Source of the DNA: Candidatus Pacearchaeota archaeon
Lineage (GTDB): Archaea > Nanobdellota > Nanobdellia > UBA10117 > JAFCGA01
DNA length: 64,000 nucleotides
Direction: 5' to 3'
Assembly (NCBI GenBank): GCA_017608345.1
Contig: JAFCGA010000002.1
Coordinates: forward strand, 79,023 to 143,022
Shown here: positions 3,588-46,006 of the stretch, piece by piece
Layout: each line of letters begins with the position of its first letter
How positions within the stretch are numbered: position 1 is the first letter of the stretch
Made by a program: the position numbers and the translations under genes
Notes under the pieces: model-generated
The model's database searches: none
Told to the model about the DNA's origin: nothing
Seen by the model: the letters and a program-made list of their open reading frames with translations, nothing else

Positions 3588-3620
3588 GATAGATTCAAAG
3601 ATCTGAATAGCATAATATAA
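3588..3620. repeat. 3'-flank arm of the 23S rRNA processing stem (pairs with 6532-6560)
   Basis: gatagattcaaagatct (3588-3604) is the exact reverse complement of 6544-6560. gcataatataa (3610-3620) is the exact reverse complement of 6532-6542. Confidence 0.8.
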
Positions 3621-3639
3621 TCGAGCTGTTAGTAACTGC

Positions 3640-6525
<2,886 letters not shown>

Positions 6526-6531
6526 CGTGTT

Positions 6532-6560
6532 TTATATTATGCAAGATCTTTGAATCTATC
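6532..6560. repeat. 5'-flank arm of the 23S rRNA processing stem
   Basis: See 3588-3620. Confidence 0.8.
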
Positions 6561-6661
6561 AATTGAATATCAATTATTCAATTACATTGTTCTCGAGCCG
6601 AGAAAATCTCAGTTCGAGTAAACTGTACAAAATCAACGAAGATTCTGAACAGAAAGTAAAG

Positions 6662-6846
6662 TGGACCCGGAGGGATTTTCAAGCTACAAAGTTGCCGAAG
6701 GTATATTCGGAGCGACGAAGTCGCGTAGTAAAATACCTTTTCTTTGGGCTACCTTACACCTTTCTTTTTCTAAAAGAAAGGGGCAGTTTGAACCCCCAGC
6801 CTCCTGCATGCAAAGCAGGCGTTCTACCGGGTTGAACTACAGGCCC
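6662..6846 (-). tRNA. tRNA-Ala(UGC) in the 16S-23S spacer, with an inferred 111-nt insertion (about 6676-6786) in the T-loop
   Basis: The sense strand reads GGGCCTG TA GTTC..GAAC G CCTGC TT TGC AT GCAGG AGGCT GGGGG TTCAAA [111 nt] T CCCTC CGGGTCC A. The acceptor closes with the G3:U70 Ala identity pair. Confidence 0.8.
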
Positions 6847-6964
6847 ATAGTTTTAAGACAGATTGGTCGATTTATAAGGTTTTTCTTTGGGCCACTTATC
6901 GCGAACCGAAGTTCGCGATCTGTTCGTCCGCGTACGCTTGGAATTAGCGTACAAACATGAGTAT

Positions 6965-6981
6965 AAGTAGATGAATAGCTT
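6965..6981. repeat. 3'-flank arm of the 16S processing stem (pairs with 8730-8745)
   Basis: aagtagatgaatagctt versus aagctattcatctact form 16 complementary bp bracketing the 16S gene. Confidence 0.75.
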
Positions 6982-7653
6982 AACCTTCTTTGAGTATTAA
7001 TCAGGATACTTGCAAGCAAGTATCCTGATTTTAAAAGGAGGTGATCCATCTGCAGGTTCCCCTACAGATACCTTGTGTTGACTTCGCCCGCCTCGCTGAA
7101 CCAGGATTCGACTTAACCAAGAAGTTGAGCCTCATCCCAACCCAACTCGGTTGGCGTGACAGGCAGTGTGTGCAAGGGCCAGGGACACATTCACCGCACG
7201 ATGCTAACGCACGATTACTAGGGATTTCGTTTTCACGAGGGTGAGTTGCAACCCTCGATTCGAAAAGATTGAATTTAAGGGATTGGCTTCTCCTTTCGGA
7301 GTTGCAGCCCGTTGTTTCAACCATTGCTTGCCGCGTGTAGCCCAGAGGATTCGAGGCATACTGACCTACCGTAGCCTACACCTTCCTCTCCCTTTCGAGA
7401 GCAGTCCCTTCAGTGTGCTTATTCTCAATGAGAATAGTGGCAACTGAAAGCGTAGGTCTCGCTCGTTGTCTGACTTAACAGAACACCTCACGGCACGAGC
7501 TGACGGCGGCCATGCACCATCTCTCAGCGCGTCGAGTGAGCCATTCAGGCTGACCTTCATTCTGCTGTCGCTTCTGGTAAGGTTCCGGGCGTATAATCCA
7601 ATTGAACCGCAGCACCCACCCCTTGTGGTAGCCCCCCGCCAATTCCTTTAAGT

Positions 7654-7698
7654 ATACTGTAGCTACATTTCTCTAATATTTGTAAGAAAATATAGCAA
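7654..7698 (-). other. 16S insertion 1 (45 nt, putative intron) splitting GGCTGAA | ACTTAAAGGAATTGG
   Basis: The conserved block is contiguous in ordinary archaeal 16S but interrupted here. Boundary is +/-2 nt. Confidence 0.7.
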
Positions 7699-7817
7699 TT
7701 CAGCCTTGCGACCGTACTCCCCAGGTGGCCTGCTTAACGACTTCTCTCCGACACTGCATGCTCACGAAGAACATGCAGCACCTAGCAGGCAGCGTTTACG
7801 GCTAGGACTACGAGGGT

Positions 7818-7882
7818 TATTAGGGCTCTGGAAAATAGTTTTCTTTTTCCAGGGTTTTTCTTTTTAAAAAAAGAAAAAGCCT
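7818..7882 (-). other. 16S insertion 2 (65 nt, putative intron) splitting GGATTAGAT | ACCCTCGTAGTCC
   Basis: The interrupted block is the 785-806 'universal primer' region. The insert folds into two hairpins: TTTTTCTTTTT/AAAAAGAAAAA and CTGGAAAA/TTTTCCAG. Confidence 0.75.
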
Positions 7883-7980
7883 ATCTAATCCTCTTTGATC
7901 CCCTAGCTTTCATCCCTGACCGTCAGACCCGTTCTAGTTAGACGCCTTCGCCGCTGGCGGTCCTCTGGGGATTAAAACAA

Positions 7981-8071
7981 TGTAACTGCACTTTTTCGCT
8001 GCTTTGCAGCAAGTAAAGTAGTTTCTTTTGGGCTACCTTACACCTTTTCTTTCCTAAAGAAAAGGGGCAGT
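7981..8071 (-). other. 16S insertion 3 (about 91 nt, putative intron) splitting GAGCGGTAAAA | TTGTTTTAATCCCCAGAGGACC
   Basis: It interrupts the conserved GGTAAAATCCTGTAATCC-type block and carries a module shared with the tRNA-Ala insertion. Confidence 0.7.
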
Positions 8072-8235
8072 TTTTACCGCTCCCCCCAGAATACCTCTAA
8101 CTCCTCCCGGTCTCAAGCTAAGCAGTATTTTCAGCACGCCTGACAGTTGAGCTGCCAGATTTCACTAAAGACTTACTTAGCCGGCTACGGATGCTTTAGA
8201 CCCAATAAACGTGACCACCACTAAGGGCGCCGGGA

Positions 8236-8266
<31 letters not shown>

Positions 8267-8729
8267 CCCTTTATTCCTGAAGCGTTTTGGACTCCAGAAA
8301 AGCAGACGCAAAAAGCGCCTGCACGTAGGATTCCCCCATCACGCTTGCGCGCATTGTGGAGTATTCAGAACTGCTGCACCCCGTAGGGCTGGGAGCCTTA
8401 TCTCAGTCTCCCTCTCAGGGCTAGGACTCTCATCCCCCTTACAGATCTTAGGTTTGGTGAGCCGTTACCTCACCAACAGCCTAATCTGCCGCCAACTCAT
8501 CCTATGGCGCCGAAGCTTTGGATAAAAGCGCATTCCAGCCTCTTTTATCTATCGGGAATTATCTTCAGTTTCCCGAAGTTATGCCCGACCATAGGGTAGA
8601 TTATTGACGTGTTACTGAGCCTTTCGCCATGATTTCTCATAGACTTGCATGTCTCATGGATCCTACTAGCAGTGGTCTCCCGCAGGATAAACGGGAATTG
8701 TGATCGCATTAAAATAGAATTGGCTATTA

Positions 8730-10498: not shown

Positions 10499-10641
10499 TG
10501 CAGGGGACAGGGTTCGAACCTGCGTAGGCACTAAGCCACTGGGTCCTAAACCCAGCCCGTTCAATCGCAACCAACGCTAAGCTATCTTCTTTCCGCCAGC
10601 GCTTTCTTAAAGGGCTGCTTTGACCACTCCGGCACCCCTGC
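10499..10641 (-). tRNA. tRNA-Leu(UAG) with an inferred 57-nt insertion (about 10561-10617) in the D-loop
   Basis: GCAGGGG TG CCG GAGTGGTCAAAG [57 nt] A CGG G CTGGG TT TAG GA CCCAG, followed by a long variable arm, GCAGG TTCGAAC CCTGT CCCCTGC A. Confidence 0.75.
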
Positions 10642-20638: not shown

Positions 20639-22429
20639 TTATTCTTCATCCTCTTTAAACTCCGCTTTTTCTTCTTTCCTTTCAGCCTCAAGTTCTTTTT
20701 CTTCAGCTATTTCTTCAGCACCTTCTTTTTCTTCTTTATCGATCTTCTTCTCAGCTTTTTCCAATTTCTTTAATTCTTCAGCTTCTTCTTTTTCTGTCTC
20801 AGCTTCTTCAACTTTAGATAATTCAATTTCGCTCATATACATTGACTCAGCGATTTTTAATAATTGTTCGTGTATCTTCTTAGCTTTCTTTTCTAAATCC
20901 TCAGTTGATAGTTTGAAAGATTCGTCAGTAATTAAATTTGCTACAGATCTAGCAACTTCTCCAGAGTAAGCTTTAAATTTCTCCCGTTTCTTTGCTTCAA
21001 TCTCTGCTCTCTGTCTTCGAGCGACATATCTATACAGACTCCGACCGCATTCTTGTAAAGCTAATTTAGTTTCTTTAATAATTTCAGGATAATTTGCAAT
21101 AGCTTCCTTTCCCTCTGATGTGAATGGAACCCAAACTGAGGCCATGTGGACGAGAACTATCGCTGCGCCAGTTGGCATATTCCCACTGCTTTGACTTAAT
21201 CCGTAGGATTTCCAGCTCATCTTTTTGATAGCTTTTGTTATTGCGCAGGCTCCTTCTTGGTATAGCAGAGGAACTTTATTTGCAAACCTAACCATTTTAA
21301 CTGATCCTTCGGGATCCAAATCTCCGCCATATCCAATTGCAATTTCTATTTGAAAGGGATTTCCGCGATAAACAGATGGCGAACGGGTGATAGCATATGA
21401 GAAATCAATGCTGTATTCGGAATCTAGACTTTTCTTAAGCAATTCCGAGCCAATTGGAGATAAGCAGTCCATTGATGGCTTCATTATCTTTGCTTCTTGC
21501 ATGCCCTTAAGTAACCGCTCGATTTGTTCAGGTTTCAGTAATTTAGGTAAGAACTTCCCGTTGATTTGTGCGTCAACATCTAAAGTATTATTCGCGATCT
21601 TAATAATGTCATTCGCGGAAGTTGAACCTATCTTATCGAATTCTTTCATTAAAAATGACTTTACTGACCGCGCTTTTGTACCATCTATCATCCGTTTAAG
21701 AATTCCTAGCTCAACTCCGTATGGATGTGGTTTTATTTGTTTCGACGGTTTAGGAAGTTTATCTGTAACTCTTGGAAATTCTAGCTTTTCTCCACTCGGA
21801 GCAACATAAACTATTTTAGCGTGCGGGTTAACAATCGCCGTGGCTTTGATATATTCGATAACTGATTGACGATGTTCAATATATTTAGCTTGCATATCCA
21901 CCTCGACTTTAATTCCATGCTCTCTGTCCCATTCGATCCCTGTTGATTCAATTATGTCCGGTTCATTCTTCTTGACGTCGATATGCAGAATATATAATCT
22001 GGCTTTATCATCGTCCTTTGTTTTGGAGATTATTTTAGCTGGCTTTCCAGTAGTTAATTGACCGTACAGAATTACTGCAGAAATCCCAATACCTTGCTGT
22101 CCTCTACCTTGTTTTCCGCCAATGGATTGGAATTTAGAACCGTAAAGTAATTTACCAAATGATTTTGTAAGATGCTTTTTACTGATTCCCGGGCCATTGT
22201 CTTCGACGATCATCTTGAATTTATCCTCGCCGAGATCTATGAGTGATATTTTGATTTCAGGGAGAACTTTAGCAGCCTCGCAAGCGTCTAATGAATTATC
22301 AACTGCTTCTTTTACAGAGGTTAGAAGTGCTTTAGTTGGATTATCAAATCCTAAAAGATGGCGATTCCTCTCGAAAAACTCAGCAATAGAGACAGCCTTA
22401 TGTGTTTCCTTGCTTTTAGAATCAGTCAT
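20639..22429 (-). CDS. top6B: DNA topoisomerase VI subunit B (GHKL ATPase) with an E/K-rich C-terminal tail
   Basis: Bergerat fold motifs EAVDNSLDA and DNGPGI..GSKF..GGKQGRGQQGIG. Confidence 0.9.
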   Translation of the reverse strand: MTDSKSKETHKAVSIAEFFERNRHLLGFDNPTKALLTSVKEAVDNSLDACEAAKVLPEIKISLIDLGEDKFKMIVEDNGPGISKKHLTKSFGKLLYGSKFQSIGGKQGRGQQGIGISAVILYGQLTTGKPAKIISKTKDDDKARLYILHIDVKKNEPDIIESTGIEWDREHGIKVEVDMQAKYIEHRQSVIEYIKATAIVNPHAKIVYVAPSGEKLEFPRVTDKLPKPSKQIKPHPYGVELGILKRMIDGTKARSVKSFLMKEFDKIGSTSANDIIKIANNTLDVDAQINGKFLPKLLKPEQIERLLKGMQEAKIMKPSMDCLSPIGSELLKKSLDSEYSIDFSYAITRSPSVYRGNPFQIEIAIGYGGDLDPEGSVKMVRFANKVPLLYQEGACAITKAIKKMSWKSYGLSQSSGNMPTGAAIVLVHMASVWVPFTSEGKEAIANYPEIIKETKLALQECGRSLYRYVARRQRAEIEAKKREKFKAYSGEVARSVANLITDESFKLSTEDLEKKAKKIHEQLLKIAESMYMSEIELSKVEEAETEKEEAEELKKLEKAEKKIDKEEKEGAEEIAEEKELEAERKEEKAEFKEDEE

Positions 22430-22534: not shown

Positions 22535-23590
22535 TTAGTTAGCAGTTGTTTTAATATTAGCTAGCTTAACATAGAGTTCTTCTTTTAACTCACCATTCTT
22601 CCAATATAAAACTTTCGCAGATCGTTTAGCAAGATTTACCTTTATTCCGAAATCGATTTCTGGATTTTGCTCAAGTCCGTCTGCAATTGCTACTTCAAGC
22701 TGCATAAAATTCATAGATGGTTTTGATCTTGGCCTCAAGCCCAATTCTTCATCTACTTTTCTTTCTAATTCATAAATCTGAGTATCAATTTCACTCGAGG
22801 AATATGGTTTGAAGAAATCATCTTTAACTGCATCGGTTTCAGCAATACTTTTGCTGCCATTCTTCACTAAAGTTCCAATATTATATCTGTCTTCGTCTGC
22901 GATTGCTTGCAGAACTGCGCGGTCTTTTTCTGAGAAGGTAATCTCTTTTGTTTGAGGGGTATTTGTAGCAACGCTCTCAGTAGAAGGTAAAATTAATAAT
23001 TTTGTTTGTTGTTCTAATGTATATTGTTCATTTAATGTTTGGGTCTGCTCAGTAAGATAAATTACTTGTTGTTCGATAGACTCATATTTTATTTGAAGAT
23101 TATTCCTTAATGTGATTTTAGCACTTATCTTCGGACTATCTTTAACTTTAAGTTTCTGTTTACTTAGGTCTATTGCGTTTATGCTCGACGCTAATGTTCT
23201 AAATCTGGTCTCTTGTTTGTTAGCTAATGCAGCTTTTGCTTGTGCTCGAAGATCTTCTTTGCGAGTATCGTGAGCTTTAAGTTTTTTTCTGTATCCATCT
23301 ATTACTTTAGTTAATGAAGCTATCTCTATGTCTGCTCTATTAAGTTGAGTCTTTGCTTTCTGTAAATCAGTTTTAGTAATGGCGATTTTATATTCCAGTG
23401 TTCCTTCCTCTGGAATGCGTCGATTTGTTGATCTGAGCGACAAAGTAGTTCCATTTTCAGATTGTTGCGCGTCTAATCCCGCCAATCTTTCTGCGCGATA
23501 CTTAGCTACATCTGCTTTCGCTACAGCTTTCTTAGCCTTCCATCTAGCTTTCTCCGCCTTCTGCTGTCTATATTTATCACCATTAAACAT
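22535..23590 (-). CDS. Hypothetical coiled-coil protein
   Basis: 351 aa; the N-terminal two thirds are heptad-like and K/Q/E-rich. No recognisable family. Confidence 0.45.
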   Translation of the reverse strand: MFNGDKYRQQKAEKARWKAKKAVAKADVAKYRAERLAGLDAQQSENGTTLSLRSTNRRIPEEGTLEYKIAITKTDLQKAKTQLNRADIEIASLTKVIDGYRKKLKAHDTRKEDLRAQAKAALANKQETRFRTLASSINAIDLSKQKLKVKDSPKISAKITLRNNLQIKYESIEQQVIYLTEQTQTLNEQYTLEQQTKLLILPSTESVATNTPQTKEITFSEKDRAVLQAIADEDRYNIGTLVKNGSKSIAETDAVKDDFFKPYSSSEIDTQIYELERKVDEELGLRPRSKPSMNFMQLEVAIADGLEQNPEIDFGIKVNLAKRSAKVLYWKNGELKEELYVKLANIKTTAN

Positions 23591-27074: not shown

Positions 27075-27752
27075 TTATCTTTCCCGTAACAAAATAGTTA
27101 GCTTAGTCAGCGGCTTGCTTCTTATTTTATCCCAACCGTGTTGTTTAGATGAGAGCGTCATCTTGCAGTTAAGTCTTTTCCTGGCTTCCATAGCTACTGA
27201 TTTTGCAATATCTTTTCGGTCTAAATAAAGGTCTATTCCTTGCTTTCGCTCTTCAGCTTTGATTAGTTTAGCTTTTTTTGTGAACATTCGCGAGGCCTTC
27301 TTGACAAATGCTTCGACGTCTTTGTCGGTTCTTATTTGTACAATGGCTAGATAAGAAGTGCTATTTTCCCGTGAACACTCTGGACAGCAGAATTTTTCAA
27401 TTGTCAATTGGGTTATGTATTCTTTCTCGATCTCTGAATTACCTATTCTGAGCAAGAGTTTAAGTTTTCCTTTTGCTCCGAGCTTTTTGATTTCAGCGTC
27501 GGTAATTGTAGTATTTCGAGGGAGCTTTATTCTTTCAATAACTCTCCGCATAAGATAAGTTTCCAGTGGTTCTTCAGCCTTAATCCAAATACCTCCGAGC
27601 CAGACAGAATTGCATATTGTGCAATGTCTAATTGAAGTTTTTTTTGGAATAGTGATTACATGATTAGCTAAAAAGCATTCTGCGCAGAGACCATCAGCTA
27701 GCTTATCTGTTGAAACTCCGCATTTAGCGCAAAATCTTGACTTTAAGGTCAT
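27075..27752 (-). CDS. NMD3-family protein (short archaeal form)
   Basis: N-terminal CAKCG..CAEC and CTICNS Cys clusters typical of NMD3. Confidence 0.6.
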   Translation of the reverse strand: MTLKSRFCAKCGVSTDKLADGLCAECFLANHVITIPKKTSIRHCTICNSVWLGGIWIKAEEPLETYLMRRVIERIKLPRNTTITDAEIKKLGAKGKLKLLLRIGNSEIEKEYITQLTIEKFCCPECSRENSTSYLAIVQIRTDKDVEAFVKKASRMFTKKAKLIKAEERKQGIDLYLDRKDIAKSVAMEARKRLNCKMTLSSKQHGWDKIRSKPLTKLTILLRER

Positions 27753-29735: not shown

Positions 29736-29837
29736 CGTAAGTTTTATAAATCCTCCCCCCGTCTCTCAAATTACCCCTTATAGAATTCTGTCGTCATTAG
29801 ATTTGAGAATAAAAACAGCGTACATAATAGCAGCAAC

Positions 29838-29846
29838 CTTTAAAAA
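29838..29846 (+). promoter_or_regulatory. Candidate TATA box (ctttaaaaa) for the ribosomal protein supercluster
   Basis: It lies about 31 nt upstream of the 29877 ATG, which has a GAGGT Shine-Dalgarno at -9. Confidence 0.4.
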
Positions 29847-29876
29847 CTCATACTCAAACCCTAGAAAGAGGTAGTA

Positions 29877-29942
29877 ATGGGACACAACAAAAGACAGCGA
29901 CCAAAAAGAGGAGCAAATAGTTCTGCAGCCTCGAGCTCTTAA
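29877..29942 (+). CDS. 21-codon upstream ORF whose first 13 residues equal the L3 N-terminus (MGHNKRQRPKRGA)
   Basis: My translation is MGHNKRQRPKRGANSSAASSS*. Compared with rpl3 codons 1-13 there are 8 nucleotide differences, all synonymous. Confidence 0.5.
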   Translation: MGHNKRQRPKRGANSSAASSS

Positions 29943-29978
29943 AAAGAGTTCGTGCAGAAATCACTAATTGAGGCAAAA

Positions 29979-30018
29979 ACACGTCGGAAAACCACGATGT
30001 TGGTTACTTTCCTCGTGT
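29979..30018 (+). ncRNA. 40-nt conserved hairpin ACACGTCGGAAAACCACGATGTTGGTTACTTTCCTCGTGT in the L3 leader
   Basis: Nested stems ACACG/CGTGT, GGAAA/TTTCC and ACCA/TGGT. A near-identical copy sits at 56132-56171. Confidence 0.55.
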
Positions 30019-30055
30019 ATTTATCGCTATTGAAGCGATAAGGAACGCGATAAAC

Positions 30056-31045
30056 ATGGGACACAATAAACGACAAAGACCAAAGCGAGGCGCGAAGCAA
30101 TTCTGGCCGAGAGTCAGAGCTAAACGTATGTATCCGCGGATTCGCTCTTGGCAGAAGCATTCTCAAACTAAGTTATTGGGATTTGCTGGCTATAAGGCCG
30201 GTATGACACATATTCATTTCGTGGATAACCGTGCTAATTCTCCGACAAAGGGCGAGGAGATACGGATGCCCGTTACGGTTCTCGAAACCCCGTCGATTCA
30301 TATTCTTTCTGTTCGTTTATACCAAAAATCTGGTTATGGTCTTTCTTTAATTTCTGAAGCTTGGGCGGATACTCTAACTCAAGATCTCAAACGAAGGCTA
30401 AAATTACCTAAGAAGCGATCAAATAAACTTCAAGAGCTTGAAAAGCAGTTAGAAAAAGCAGCCGAAGTAAGAGTTTTAATTTATACACAACCGAAGTACA
30501 CTGGTTTTGGAAAGAAAAAACCAGACGTATTTGAGTTAGGGATCGGTGGAAGCGATCCAAAGGCTAAGTTTGATTTCGCAAAATCTATTCTGGGAACGGA
30601 TGTTCCACTGTCTCAAGTTTTCAAGGAAGGAGAAATCTTAGATGTCCACGCAATAACCAAAGGAAAAGGATTCCAAGGAGTAGTAAAGCGGTTTGGAGTA
30701 AAAATTCAGCCAAGAAAGGCAGAAACCAGAAGAAAGATCGGAACCCTTGGTCCATGGACGCCAAAGAACGTACCTTACTGGGTTCCAATGGCCGGTCAGA
30801 TGGGTTTCCACCCGCGGACAGAGTACAATAAGCATCTTCTAAAAATTGCAAACGCTAAAGATCAAGAAGTAACTCCGAATGGCGGATTTGTAAGATACGG
30901 GCAAGTCAAAGGAGATTATATCTTGGTTGCAGGATCCGTTCCTGGTCCGAAGAAGCGATTAATCACACTCACACATGCAACACGAGCGTACAAAACAATT
31001 CCCGCTCCAGAGAATGTAGAAATTAGTCGGAGGAGTCAGCAATGA
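30056..31045 (+). CDS. rpl3: 50S ribosomal protein L3 (uL3)
   Basis: N-terminus MGHNKRQRPKRG..FWPRVRA plus cluster position. Confidence 0.95.
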   Translation: MGHNKRQRPKRGAKQFWPRVRAKRMYPRIRSWQKHSQTKLLGFAGYKAGMTHIHFVDNRANSPTKGEEIRMPVTVLETPSIHILSVRLYQKSGYGLSLISEAWADTLTQDLKRRLKLPKKRSNKLQELEKQLEKAAEVRVLIYTQPKYTGFGKKKPDVFELGIGGSDPKAKFDFAKSILGTDVPLSQVFKEGEILDVHAITKGKGFQGVVKRFGVKIQPRKAETRRKIGTLGPWTPKNVPYWVPMAGQMGFHPRTEYNKHLLKIANAKDQEVTPNGGFVRYGQVKGDYILVAGSVPGPKKRLITLTHATRAYKTIPAPENVEISRRSQQ

Positions 31046-43232: not shown

Positions 43233-43622
43233 ATGTCAATAACTCACAAAACCACAAAAACTCGGAAAAAGCGAGCTAGTCGTACTTATGGCTGGGGCGG
43301 AGGTAAAAAACACCGCGGAGCTGGCTCTAGAGGTGGAAGAGGTAAGGCTGGTTCTGGAAAGCGAGGTCAGCAGAGAGAAACCAAGTATCTTGCTAAACAT
43401 ATAAAAATGGTTGGGAAGCACGGTTTTAAATCACATATAAAGCGATTGAAGATAATTAATGTCTCAGAGATTTCTAAATTAGCAAAAAACAACGAAGTCG
43501 ATATAACTAATTACAAACTCCTTGGCAGCGGAAATATCAGCGAAAAGCTTAAAGTTAAAGTTAAACAATACACTAAGAAAGCTGAAGAAAAAATCAAAGC
43601 TGCTGGTGGAGAGATTGTGTAA
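43233..43622 (+). CDS. rpl15: 50S ribosomal protein L15 (uL15)
   Basis: ..GGGKKHRGAGSRGGRGKAG.. Confidence 0.95.
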   Translation: MSITHKTTKTRKKRASRTYGWGGGKKHRGAGSRGGRGKAGSGKRGQQRETKYLAKHIKMVGKHGFKSHIKRLKIINVSEISKLAKNNEVDITNYKLLGSGNISEKLKVKVKQYTKKAEEKIKAAGGEIV

Positions 43623-45016
43623 TGGTCGACTGGAAAAAGATAGTAGAGTCTTTTCCTGAAGTAGATAGGCCTAAAACAAAGAAACTTGGCTTTAACGCAA
43701 AACTCAAGTGGACAGGTATTGTCCTTTTATTATATTTTCTCTTACTTCATATTCCCTTGCATGGTTTGGGGGCTAATGCTCTTGAGCAATTCGAGTATCT
43801 TTCTATTATTCTTGGAGCGAGTTTTGGTTCAATAATCTCTTTAGGTATTGGACCTATCGTAACAGCGTCTATTGTTCTGCAATTATTAATGGGCTCGGGC
43901 ATGCTTAATCTCGATATGAACACGCACGAAGGCAAAATCAAGTTCCAAGCTCTGCAAAAAATCGCAACCATCGCGTTCATAATTTTCGAAGCAATAGTTT
44001 ACGTTTTCATGGGTGGTCTCGCACCAGCACCGGAACTGGCAGGAACATCTGTTTTCTTGTATATTCAGATTGGATTAGTGATTCAGCTAGCTATTGGCGG
44101 TTATATGCTCGTGCTTATGGATGAAATTATAACTAAATGGGGCTTTGGTTCAGGAGTTTCACTATTTATTGCGGGTGGAGTTTCAAGACAAATATTTATT
44201 TCTGCGCTGAATTGGCTACCTTCGCCGACAAATCCAAATGTACCGGTCGGTAGAATTCCTTTTTTAATTCAAGCTTTAGGGCAAGGAGATCCGTTAGGTG
44301 CATTGATTGCGATTATAGCCATAGTTGCTACTATCGTCGTTTTCTTGCTCTGCGTATATGGGCAGGCTATGAAAGTAGAGATACCGCTCTCCTTTGGTAG
44401 AGTGAGAGGGTATGGTATGCGATGGCCGCTTAAATTCATGTACACTTCTAATATTCCCGTTATACTTATTGCTGCACTGATGGCGAATATCCAGCTATGG
44501 GCTAGACTGTTGCAGAACTGGGGGCACCCGATATTAGGCACTTTTTCAGGTAATGCTCCTGCTACCGGGCTTGTAAAATGGATAGCATCTCCAGATATTG
44601 TAAGATCTTTAGTTGTAGGTGCTGCTACCGGAGAAATGGTCATCCAAGCTGTTGTTTATACTGCGCTGATGGTCGGTGGAGCAATCTTATTCTCGGTTCT
44701 GTGGGTAAAAACCGCTAACATGGACGCTAAGGCTCAAGCTAAGCAGATTCTAGCTTCGGGATTGCAAGTTCCGGGATTTAGAAGAGATCCTAGAATTTTA
44801 GAGTCGGTACTTAATCGATATATTCCTGGTTTAACGATTATGGGTGGAGCACTAGTTGGTTTGCTAGCAGCAGTGGCAGATCTATCTGGCGCATTAAGCC
44901 GAGGTACAGGTATTTTACTTACAGTTATGATTGTGTATAAGCTATTCGAGGATATTTCTAGACAGCATGCGTATGATATGCATCCTGCATTACGTAAGTT
45001 CATGAGTCCCGAATAG
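43622..45016 (+). CDS. secY: Preprotein translocase subunit SecY
   Basis: 10-TM SecY pattern and its position after L15. Confidence 0.95.
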   Translation: MVDWKKIVESFPEVDRPKTKKLGFNAKLKWTGIVLLLYFLLLHIPLHGLGANALEQFEYLSIILGASFGSIISLGIGPIVTASIVLQLLMGSGMLNLDMNTHEGKIKFQALQKIATIAFIIFEAIVYVFMGGLAPAPELAGTSVFLYIQIGLVIQLAIGGYMLVLMDEIITKWGFGSGVSLFIAGGVSRQIFISALNWLPSPTNPNVPVGRIPFLIQALGQGDPLGALIAIIAIVATIVVFLLCVYGQAMKVEIPLSFGRVRGYGMRWPLKFMYTSNIPVILIAALMANIQLWARLLQNWGHPILGTFSGNAPATGLVKWIASPDIVRSLVVGAATGEMVIQAVVYTALMVGGAILFSVLWVKTANMDAKAQAKQILASGLQVPGFRRDPRILESVLNRYIPGLTIMGGALVGLLAAVADLSGALSRGTGILLTVMIVYKLFEDISRQHAYDMHPALRKFMSPE

Positions 45017-46006
45017 TTAGAATTCTTTATTTGGTATTTCTTTCATAAATTCAGAAATAGCGTCTGCTGGCGGTCTATTTTCAAATAAAATAGAATAAAT
45101 CATTTCTATTAATGGTAGCTTTAAATCATGCGTTTTGGCTAGATCCTTAGCAATCTTAGTAGCAGAAACGCCTTCTGTAACTTGAGTCATTTCTGATTGA
45201 CCATCGCTCAAGGATAGTCCTTTTCCGATTTTCTCGCCAAGAGTTCGATTTCTGCTATGCTTGCTAGTCGAAGTTACAAATAAATCCCCCAGTCCACCTA
45301 AGCCAGTCATCGTTAGTGGCTGCGCACCTAATTTAACTGCTAGTTGAGAGATTTCAGCTAGCCCACGAGTTACTAGCGCAGATTTTGTGTTTGGGCCGAA
45401 TCCAAGGCCGTCGCAAATGCCGGCAAGTAGTGCGATTATGTTCTTGAAAGCTCCACCTAGCTCAACGCCTTTGACGTCGTTACTTAGGTAAATTTTGTAA
45501 TAAGGTGCTGAAAAAGTAGCTTGCGCAGTCTTTAGAGCTTCATCGTCTTCGGAAGCAAAAACTACGACTGTTGGAATCTCCGCTGCAAGCTCGTTAGCAA
45601 TAGATGGACCGCCTATAGCAATTATTGGGTTATTCGGAAGCTCTTCTCGGATGACTTCGGACATTAATTTATTTGTGTTTTGTTCTAATCCTTTGGCTAC
45701 GTCCACAATGATCTGATTCTCTTTTATGAATTGTGCAGCTTGTTTTGCAACCACTCTGACAATGTGTGAAGGGACTGCGAGGAGAATTATTTCTGCTTCA
45801 GAAATTGCTTCTTCGATATTTAGCGTCACGATTAATGCTTTTTCTAGCTTTATTCCTGAAAGATATTTCTTATTTTCATTATCCTTGTTTATGCTTTCAA
45901 AGACTTCCTTTTCGATAGTCCAAGTGACTACTTCATGCTTGTTTTTAGTAAGAAGATTAGCTAAAGTAGTGCCCATGTTGCCAGCACCGAGAACTGCTAT
46001 TTTCAT
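45017..46006 (-). CDS. gpsA: NAD(P)H-dependent glycerol-3-phosphate dehydrogenase (bacterial GpsA type)
   Basis: MKIAVLGAGNMGT.., GGAFKNIIALLAGICDGLGFG.N, LVTRGLAEI, GLGDL.VT..S..SRNR. Its stop codon abuts the secY stop with 0 nt between them. Confidence 0.85.
   Translation of the reverse strand: MKIAVLGAGNMGTTLANLLTKNKHEVVTWTIEKEVFESINKDNENKKYLSGIKLEKALIVTLNIEEAISEAEIILLAVPSHIVRVVAKQAAQFIKENQIIVDVAKGLEQNTNKLMSEVIREELPNNPIIAIGGPSIANELAAEIPTVVVFASEDDEALKTAQATFSAPYYKIYLSNDVKGVELGGAFKNIIALLAGICDGLGFGPNTKSALVTRGLAEISQLAVKLGAQPLTMTGLGGLGDLFVTSTSKHSRNRTLGEKIGKGLSLSDGQSEMTQVTEGVSATKIAKDLAKTHDLKLPLIEMIYSILFENRPPADAISEFMKEIPNKEF

Follow-up and report, generated by a model that had tools for sequence, protein, structure and literature searches.

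The stretch of DNA examined here, referred to as the window, comprises 64,000 nucleotides (nt) of contig JAFCGA010000002.1, and its host is archaeal, an uncultivated, Woesearchaeota-like member of the DPANN group; the closest public L3 genes are annotated as belonging to Woesearchaeota or Nanoarchaeia metagenome-assembled genomes. The gene rpl3, which encodes ribosomal protein L3 (uL3), is the first gene of a ribosomal-protein cluster of approximately 15 kilobases that lies on the plus strand and ends with secY (43622-45016). Directly 5' of L3 there is a non-coding region of 320 nt containing a short upstream open reading frame (uORF), whose first 13 codons, here called the head, encode the same residues as the first 13 codons of L3. 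The features of this region are listed below in 5' to 3' order.

29743-29750, plus strand: distal TATA-like box TTTATAAA, about 25 nt 5' of the conserved leader motif; putative promoter
29774-29800, plus strand: conserved leader motif CCCCTTATAGAATTCTGTCGTCATTAG, which occurs only once in the window
29838-29846, plus strand: proximal promoter-like motif CTTTAAAAA, its centre 35 nt 5' of the uORF ATG
29868-29872, plus strand: Shine-Dalgarno (SD) sequence GAGGT of the uORF, 4 nt before the ATG
29877-29942, plus strand: uORF, 21 codons and a TAA stop codon, encoding MGHNKRQRPKRGANSSAASSS
29877-29915, plus strand: head of the uORF, 13 codons encoding the same residues as the L3 N-terminus; 8 of the differences are synonymous and 0 non-synonymous
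29921-29959, plus strand: strong hairpin over the last uORF codons (-18.7 kcal/mol, z = -5.2), with the stop codon at its apex
29970-30014, plus strand: weak predicted stem-loop (z = -1.3, not significant)
30013-30050, plus strand: strong hairpin directly 5' of L3 (-17.6 kcal/mol, z = -4.9)
30056-31045, plus strand: rpl3 (uL3, 329 amino acids, PF00297 match), with the L3 head at 30056-30094

The uORF ATG and the L3 ATG are 179 nt apart, and the two reading frames differ. Codons 1-13 of both translate as MGHNKRQRPKRGA (13/13 residues identical), the L3 N-terminus in the window beginning MGHNKRQRPKRGAKQFWPR. At the nucleotide level the heads are identical at 31 of 39 positions, including the first 11, and the eight differences (head positions 12, 16, 21, 22, 30, 31, 36 and 39) are all synonymous, five of them at third positions and three being AGA/CGA exchanges at first positions. 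A direct recount agreed in this respect with the original prediction, which had reported 13 shared residues with eight silent differences out of eight. When the head is divided into its 8.67 synonymous and 27.3 non-synonymous sites, eight of the former and none of the latter differ (Fisher p = 3e-7). Moreover, an all-synonymous outcome was not obtained once in 60,000 simulations of eight random substitutions, and its probability was estimated analytically at about 1e-5. Among the 183 candidate starts of the window the arrangement is unique, no other gene having an upstream ATG that shares more than four N-terminal residues with it.

These counts bear on the simplest alternative, namely that the uORF is a neutral, functionless relic of a partial tandem duplication in which all changes happen to be silent. 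A relic is favoured by the fact that partial duplications are known to happen, by the lack of the uORF in most relatives and by the failure to find a regulatory switch. We nevertheless regard this alternative as very improbable, because eight silent changes out of eight would be expected by chance with a probability of only about 1e-5, and because none of the approximately 27 non-synonymous sites of the head has changed while the flanks are fully randomised. The proportional substitutions and the even decay that characterise a pseudogene or a neutral duplication are not seen in the head, and the earlier view that this is not a decaying pseudogene fragment therefore holds.

The divergence at silent sites was also compared with expectation. 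Eight codons of the head differ, compared with 7.45 of 12 expected for two independent synonymous draws from the codon usage of the cluster genes; the silent sites thus appear to be fully randomised, or saturated, and the conserved entity would be the peptide alone. Local alignments beyond codon 13 and 5' of the ATG were no better than dinucleotide shuffles (p = 0.70-0.90), and the suggestion that nucleotide similarity continues with indels past codon 13 was accordingly abandoned. Since the silent sites are saturated and the flanks hold no residual similarity, the 31/39 nucleotide identity is fully explained by the identity of the protein. The boundary of similarity is sharp, at codon 13/14, and approximately 140 nt after the upstream head are unrelated to L3. 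An extended duplication, or a simple tandem repeat of 179 nt, was considered and proved undetectable, as gapped alignments of the tails and of the upstream regions resembled shuffles within the window, within a related locus described below (L036) and between the two.

The protein of the head has been kept, its silent sites are free and its surroundings show no similarity, which argues for purifying selection on the peptide or on its decoding. The statement best supported by these comparisons is that the first 13 uORF codons appear to be held equal to the N-terminal tail of L3 by purifying selection at the protein level. This evidence is a comparison of paralogues inside one genome and not of orthologous uORFs, and the eight changes could not be polarised by outgroup L3 genes owing to the saturation of the silent sites. 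Support for it is given by the L3 orthologue pairs of the window's clade: in pairs with three to six silent codon differences, three to seven of 12 head residues already differ, compared with none in the uORF/L3 pair, and the lineage-specific residues N4 and Q7 are common to both heads. The two heads are thus more alike in protein than orthologues of similar silent divergence, in keeping with the earlier proposal that the peptide or its translation is constrained. In essentially one genome, the pattern suggests that the small peptide, or its translation, is functional.

The region was then compared with related L3 loci, of which about 80 were examined in total. The first set comprised 33 L3 loci from GTDB species representatives, all of them at most 61% identical, the best GTDB match to the window L3 being 61% identical. 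The second set consisted of the three closest proteins in a collection of 5.8 billion proteins together with their contigs, namely L035 (71%), L036 (72%) and L037 (67%), and the third of a single locus, L038. The fourth comprised 44 metagenome L3 loci retrieved with a degenerate pattern for the L3 start; 11 further matches had no L3 nearby and were due to chance, and the scan revealed no locus with two copies and none closer than the Logan contigs L035-L037. An exact-protein look-up of the window L3 gave no match, the proteins retrieved when only the N-terminal part of L3 was used as query were all distant and partial, and MGHNKRQRPKRGA was present in no other protein among the best homologues listed. 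No upstream copy of the L3 N-terminus was detected in the GTDB loci. When the first 75 nt of L3 were locally aligned with the 600 nt upstream, scores exceeded those of shuffles only in the window and in L036.

L036, an independent assembly whose L3 is 72% identical, carries ATGGGACATACAAAACGTAAG twice, over seven codons that are identical at 21/21 nt. Its upstream copy opens an ORF of 24 codons, reading MGHTKRK followed by QRRKSGFKFISASFRLI, that ends in a TGA 4 nt ahead of the L3 ATG, which has no SD; the tail of this ORF is unrelated to L3 and to the uORF of the window. In a prefix test of 184 upstream ATGs from 44 leaders, the residues shared with L3 numbered 13 in the window, seven in L036 and three in L060. 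The last of these (MGH-S-IKRK as compared with MGHIKRK, with three silent differences) is weak evidence of recurrence. Absence of the uORF in close relatives had been named as a refuting observation and turned out to be weakly informative: L036 has an analogous uORF, L035 and L037 have none, and the L3 proteins of all three are only 67-72% identical to that of the window. The phylogenetic support is thin, consisting of one genome, one partial analogue (L036) and one weak case (L060). As a separate observation on these contigs, the public gene calls of L3 at L036:80-151 and L037:308-379 (P0003 and P0004) begin at an internal methionine (MYPR), so that 24 N-terminal residues are missing, the conserved FWPRKRA motif among them.

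The independent data set also bears on the possibility that the arrangement is an artefact of assembly, produced by concatenation of two variants of the L3 start from different strains. The window does come from a metagenome-assembled contig, and the contig of L036 begins exactly at its uORF ATG. An artefact is nonetheless highly unlikely in our view, given that the 140 nt after the upstream head that are unrelated to L3 do not fit a flattened strain bubble, that a repeat of 39 nt with eight mismatches is too short and too divergent to mislead an assembler, and that the analogous arrangement of L036 rests on a repeat of 21 nt, shorter than typical assembly k-mers.

The start signals of the two reading frames were analyzed against this family background. 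In about 30 related L3 loci the layout consists of a TATA-like CTTTATAAA, approximately 25 nt, the leader motif in the form CCCCTT..AATTCTGTCG, a variable stretch and a second TATA-like element, CCTTAAAAAGG; the distal part, in which CTTTATAAA or CTTTTAAA is followed after about 25 nt by the leader motif, likewise recurs in about 30 loci. The distance between the proximal motif and the L3 ATG has a median of 37 nt in the relatives and is mostly 32-41 nt. In the window this spacing is found for the uORF ATG (35 nt), and the distance of 103 nt between the leader motif and the uORF ATG is also within the family range for the L3 ATG. Because canonical promoter spacing and leader distance fit the uORF ATG and not the L3 ATG, the uORF would appear to occupy the ancestral L3 start site, the body of L3 having been displaced by 179 nt.

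The same signals were compared with those of other genes of the window. Its first genes have CTTTTAA or CTTAAAAG about 30-35 nt 5' of the ATG, without an SD, whereas many internal cluster genes carry GGAGG-type sites, which suggests that first cistrons initiate leaderless and internal cluster genes via the SD. Examples of such first genes are those at 1400, 20639-22429 (minus strand), 22535-23590 (minus strand), 27075-27752 (minus strand), 28097, 45017-46006 (minus strand), 46093 and 46669. The 3' end of the 16S ribosomal RNA (rRNA) of the window was read as GGATCACCTCCTTTT, or GGAUCACCUCCUUUU, and its CACCUCC is complementary to the GAGGT of the uORF. For L3 the only SD is AAGGA (30040-30044), located 11 nt 5' of the ATG and partly buried in a hairpin. 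The original prediction had assigned the uORF both a better promoter context and a better SD than L3. Both assignments stood, the former being strengthened by the family and genome comparisons, and the latter resting on a GAGGT 4 nt from its ATG as against an AAGGA 11 nt from that of L3.

The leader motif is found 5' of L3 in at least 25 related loci, with CCC, T and ATTCTG invariant. In the Woesearchaeota clade it takes the form CCCCTT(A/G)YAG..AGAATTCTG(T/C)CG and occurs once per locus, about 25 nt 3' of the TATA-like box, copies being present at L035:594-623, L037:83-111, L038:1893-1920, L001:52-80 and in about 20 metagenome loci (e.g. L063, L070 and L082). In L035, L050 and L054 it leads straight to the L3 ATG, 50-60 nt away; because it runs directly into L3 there, it would be part of the 5' untranslated region (5'UTR) in these loci. 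It probably represents either the 5' terminus of a long transcript of the operon or a site bound by a protein; as a candidate, it could serve the ribosomal-protein cluster as an operator or as a protein-binding site in the 5'UTR. Its position upstream suggests a long transcript. RNAalifold yielded no consensus RNA structure for the motif, Rfam no match at the gathering score or at E <= 5, and comparison with the window's own 16S and 23S rRNA no similarity indicative of rRNA mimicry. An AATTCTG heptamer common to the leader motif and to the QFW codons of L3 was dismissed as a coincidence, as it is not conserved in L3 across the family.

The region between the uORF and L3 contains further signals. 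A second promoter-like motif, CTCTTAAAAAGAG (29936-29948), lies 115 nt 5' of the L3 ATG at the apex of the hairpin over the uORF end, and could be a promoter that fires downstream of the uORF head. The core of the hairpin directly 5' of L3 is TATCGC-N7-GCGATA (30022-30040), and this hairpin includes the weak SD of L3. A TATCGC...GCGATA palindrome is also present in a distant relative (L081, 5364-5378), 13-15 nt 5' of the L3 ATG in both cases, the distance in L081 being 13 nt, and nowhere else in 93 loci or in the window. With its second copy of the promoter-like motif and its TATCGC hairpin, as in L081, the part next to L3 resembles a second, complete leader of the 'long' type, and it may have its own promoter.

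Such a double leader is one of the points in favour of an alternative in which a foreign L3 fragment from a related lineage (leader, promoter and first 13 codons) was recently joined upstream by an illegitimate event. The eight silent differences would then have arisen while both sequences were real L3 genes, and selection on the uORF would be unnecessary. Consistent with this, 42 true L3 orthologue pairs have identical 13-residue heads and eight silent codon differences; similarity ends abruptly at codon 13/14 and is absent upstream, as at a recombination junction; and two successive proximal leaders are apparent, a short canonical one before the uORF and, before L3, a long L081-like one with CTTTCC and the TATCGC hairpin. 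Those orthologue pairs, however, come from a clade in which the head is invariant, and outside the head their proteins share only about 56% identity, whereas in the clade of the window the head evolves fast, with 3-7/12 residues differing at 67-76% overall identity. A donor distant enough for silent saturation should not share N4, Q7, K10, R11 and A13 with the window, since MGHNKRQRPKRGA occurs in no other of the best homologues listed, and L036 would require a second, independent event. We therefore consider a foreign fragment unlikely.

A second alternative, which we rate as equally unlikely, places the function at the level of RNA or DNA: the upstream copy would be a frozen decoy of the L3 start, all eight changes would have occurred on the L3 side and the peptide would be irrelevant. 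Start-site mimics are in fact common in the leaders of the family, where 24 of the 184 upstream ATGs have Gly as the next codon (ATGGG) and many of these 24 lie between -49 and -75; the AAAUGGG of the L060, L064, L073 and L087 subclade pairs with a CCCAUU that is able to pair with the real L3 start; and the heads are identical over the first 11 nt in the window and over all 21 nt in L036. Against a decoy, the differences keep to third positions and to the first positions of Arg codons, a codon periodicity that extends over 28 nt, and it would be unusual for a nucleic-acid signal to consist of a frozen element of 39 nt that stops at a codon boundary. Saturation of the silent sites should also have been accompanied by changes at the variable residues of the L3 head, and there are none. 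The window yielded no anti-start sequence of the CCCAU type, nor any significant complementarity of the head to the leader or spacer. In this the window differs from the decoy hairpins of L060, L064 and L073, as its head shows no significant pairing and its leader contains no CCCAT.

The decoys of the sister subclade are an observation in their own right. The L3 leaders concerned have a single AAAUGGG 'start-site decoy' or two of them, between -49 and -75, together with CCCAUU segments for which both the decoy and the real L3 start are possible pairing partners. Loci of this type are L060 (150 nt upstream of L3), L064, L073, L087/L089/L090, L045/L046 and L067/L076. As judged from these pairings, the decoy/CCCAUU pairs look like a start-codon sequestration switch.

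Predicted folding was likewise analyzed for the window. A conserved hairpin of 40 nt had been proposed between the uORF and rpl3 (29980-30017); it corresponds to the weak stem-loop at 29970-30014, which exists in a single copy in the window and whose z of -1.3 did not sustain the proposal. No attenuator-like or anti-start pairing was found among the uORF hairpin, the spacer, the L3 hairpin and either head, complementarity being not significant, and in predicted folding the L3 hairpin stays intact when the uORF end is masked. The predicted structures also bear on a further alternative, in which both heads encode the real L3 N-terminus, either by ribosomal bypassing from uORF codon 13 to L3 codon 14 or by removal of a 179-nt intron of the bulge-helix-bulge (BHB) type. 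This would account for protein-level selection on the upstream head; moreover, DPANN archaea have many unusual introns, and the 16S rRNA and one transfer RNA (tRNA) of the window contain extra sequence. The predicted structures, however, show no pairing between the junctions, and L3 has its own ATG, so that nothing would be gained. The identical codons, the stop after take-off and the short gap that characterise T4 gene 60 are all lacking: the take-off and landing codons differ (GGA/GGC, GCA/GCG), there is no in-frame stop after codon 13, and the gap of 179 nt is far above the 50 nt of that gene. Bypassing and an intron were both rejected on sequence grounds, and we attach very little probability to either.

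The explanation that we put forward, tentatively and with confidence somewhat short of even, is that an old partial duplication of the L3 start left a first cistron with an L3-like head under protein-level selection, which probably modulates the expression of L3 or of the operon. Equivalently, the body of L3 would have been shifted 179 nt downstream of its ancestral start. Given its ancestral position, the promoter spacing of 35 nt, the leader spacing of 103 nt and the good SD, the uORF most likely serves the ribosomal-protein supercluster as a first cistron that is both transcribed and translated. A cis-regulatory role may be envisaged, in which ribosomes would load on the uORF and make a short basic peptide resembling the L3 tail, and this translation event would set the translation of L3 and the operon from the weak, hairpin-embedded L3 start. 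One possible mechanism is reinitiation or coupling, as the 4-nt stop-start spacing of L036 suggests; another is that the released peptide mimics the N-terminal tail of L3.

It is important to mention that several observations weigh against this explanation. The exact arrangement is known from one genome only, L035, L037 and about 75 more distant L3 loci being devoid of a uORF copy, and L036 is more similar to L035 (76%), where the uORF is lacking, than to the window; the feature would therefore be either ancestral and later lost, or have arisen twice. The contig of L036 starts exactly at the uORF ATG and does not extend into the upstream context, and a recent duplication or gene conversion, and not selection, could account for the 21/21 nt identity. 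Transcripts without the uORF could be initiated at the CTCTTAAAAAGAG motif, which lies 3' of the uORF head, and likewise at a TATTTAT centred 35 nt before the L3 ATG. Finally, the distance of 113 nt between the uORF stop and the L3 ATG is too far for classical coupling, and no alternative pairing joins the uORF hairpin to the L3 hairpin.

A more specific form of the explanation, to which we assign a still lower probability than to a foreign fragment or a decoy, holds that the L3 tail is functionally mimicked by the uORF peptide, a mini-protein with a 'monitoring' or titrating function. Such a mimic would compete with, or report on, the binder of the tail, which may be its assembly site in 23S rRNA or a chaperone, and would thereby tune translation of the supercluster to the demand of ribosome assembly. 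The original prediction had suggested two possible roles, a leader peptide that would regulate the supercluster and titration of a factor that would bind nascent L3. A nascent chain of 21 residues is too short to leave the ribosome exit tunnel; titration would therefore have to act through the released peptide, and co-translational recognition by an external factor is unlikely.

Among known systems, SecM, MifM and VemP are leader peptides that act as 'monitoring substrates': they reach outside the ribosome, arrest translation and remodel a downstream hairpin. The uORF is similar to them in being a short ORF in a predicted 5' leader, whose peptide resembles the real substrates of the machinery and whose amino-acid sequence appears to be selected. 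Unlike them, it has only 21 codons and no known arrest motif, and no alternative pairing was found between its hairpin and that of L3. To our knowledge, there is no case in which the N-terminus of the downstream protein itself is copied. In termination-reinitiation coupling, the stop codon overlaps the downstream start or lies within a few nucleotides of it. The stop of the L036 uORF, 4 nt before an L3 ATG without SD, has this classic geometry, whereas in the window a gap of 113 nt and two hairpins intervene; coupling would also leave the match of the peptide to L3 unexplained.

In autogenous ribosomal-protein leaders, such as the Escherichia coli S10 leader with L4 and the Methanococcus L1 operon, a ribosomal protein binds an rRNA-like structure of the mRNA. 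The region described here is similar in having a long, conserved and partly structured leader before the first gene of the operon, but in the window neither rRNA mimicry nor an Rfam family nor a consensus structure for the conserved motif was found, and the conserved unit of the uORF head appears to be a peptide and not a fold. As regards what is expected of a regulatory uORF, an ORF, an SD and canonical promoter spacing are present, although transcripts could also start downstream of the head, at the second promoter-like motif; selection on the peptide is indicated, and no alternative hairpin was found. On these comparisons, the feature would represent leader-ORF control outside any described family.

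A different parallel is offered by yeast Rpl3, whose 15 N-terminal residues bind the chaperone Rrb1, and whose mRNA is subject to co-translational control (PMC8970588, PMC4491177). Short N-terminal fragments of Rpl3 caused slow growth in yeast, presumably, according to the authors, by titration of Rrb1 (PMC8970588). In our own alignment MGHNKRQRPKRGA is paired with residues 1-13 of yeast Rpl3, a stretch within the 15 residues that Rrb1 binds; this correspondence is an analogy only. The yeast control is eukaryotic, involves Rrb1, NAC and Caf130/Ccr4-Not, has no uORF and acts on the nascent full-length protein. We know of no archaeal counterpart of this control by Rrb1, NAC and Caf130, although no search for one was made.

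Several further features of the window and of the related loci were recorded. The rRNA operon lies at 3609-8698 on the minus strand. Its 16S rRNA match (7036-8698, minus strand) spans 1663 nt as compared with a model of 1478 positions, which leaves approximately 185 nt of extra sequence, and a partial tRNA match (6779-6839, minus strand) is located inside the 16S-23S spacer. Another tRNA match, at 10499-10641 (minus strand), covers 143 nt, an intron being the probable cause. In L035 a response-regulator receiver-domain gene (L035:1608-1946, PF00072) is located directly after L3 in place of L4, an unusual departure from the L3-L4-L23-L2 order that is conserved otherwise.

As far as we know, little is understood of how archaea balance the synthesis of their ribosomal proteins, and almost nothing in the case of the unculturable DPANN archaea. 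If the proposed explanation is true, a first-cistron peptide selected to equal the tail of the next, essential protein would represent a new leader-peptide logic, based on mimicry of the regulated product, and would be linked to the eukaryotic finding that the N-terminus of Rpl3 is a regulatory handle. If the peptide does act as a mimic of the L3 tail, it would provide an archaeal equivalent, encoded by a uORF, of the control that eukaryotes exert through the Rpl3 N-terminus. Even if the uORF is a lineage-specific oddity, the conserved leader motif and promoter architecture before the L3 operon in the Woesearchaeota clade stand on their own, as do the start-site decoy hairpins of the sister subclade, and both are concrete candidates for the control of archaeal ribosomal-protein operons.

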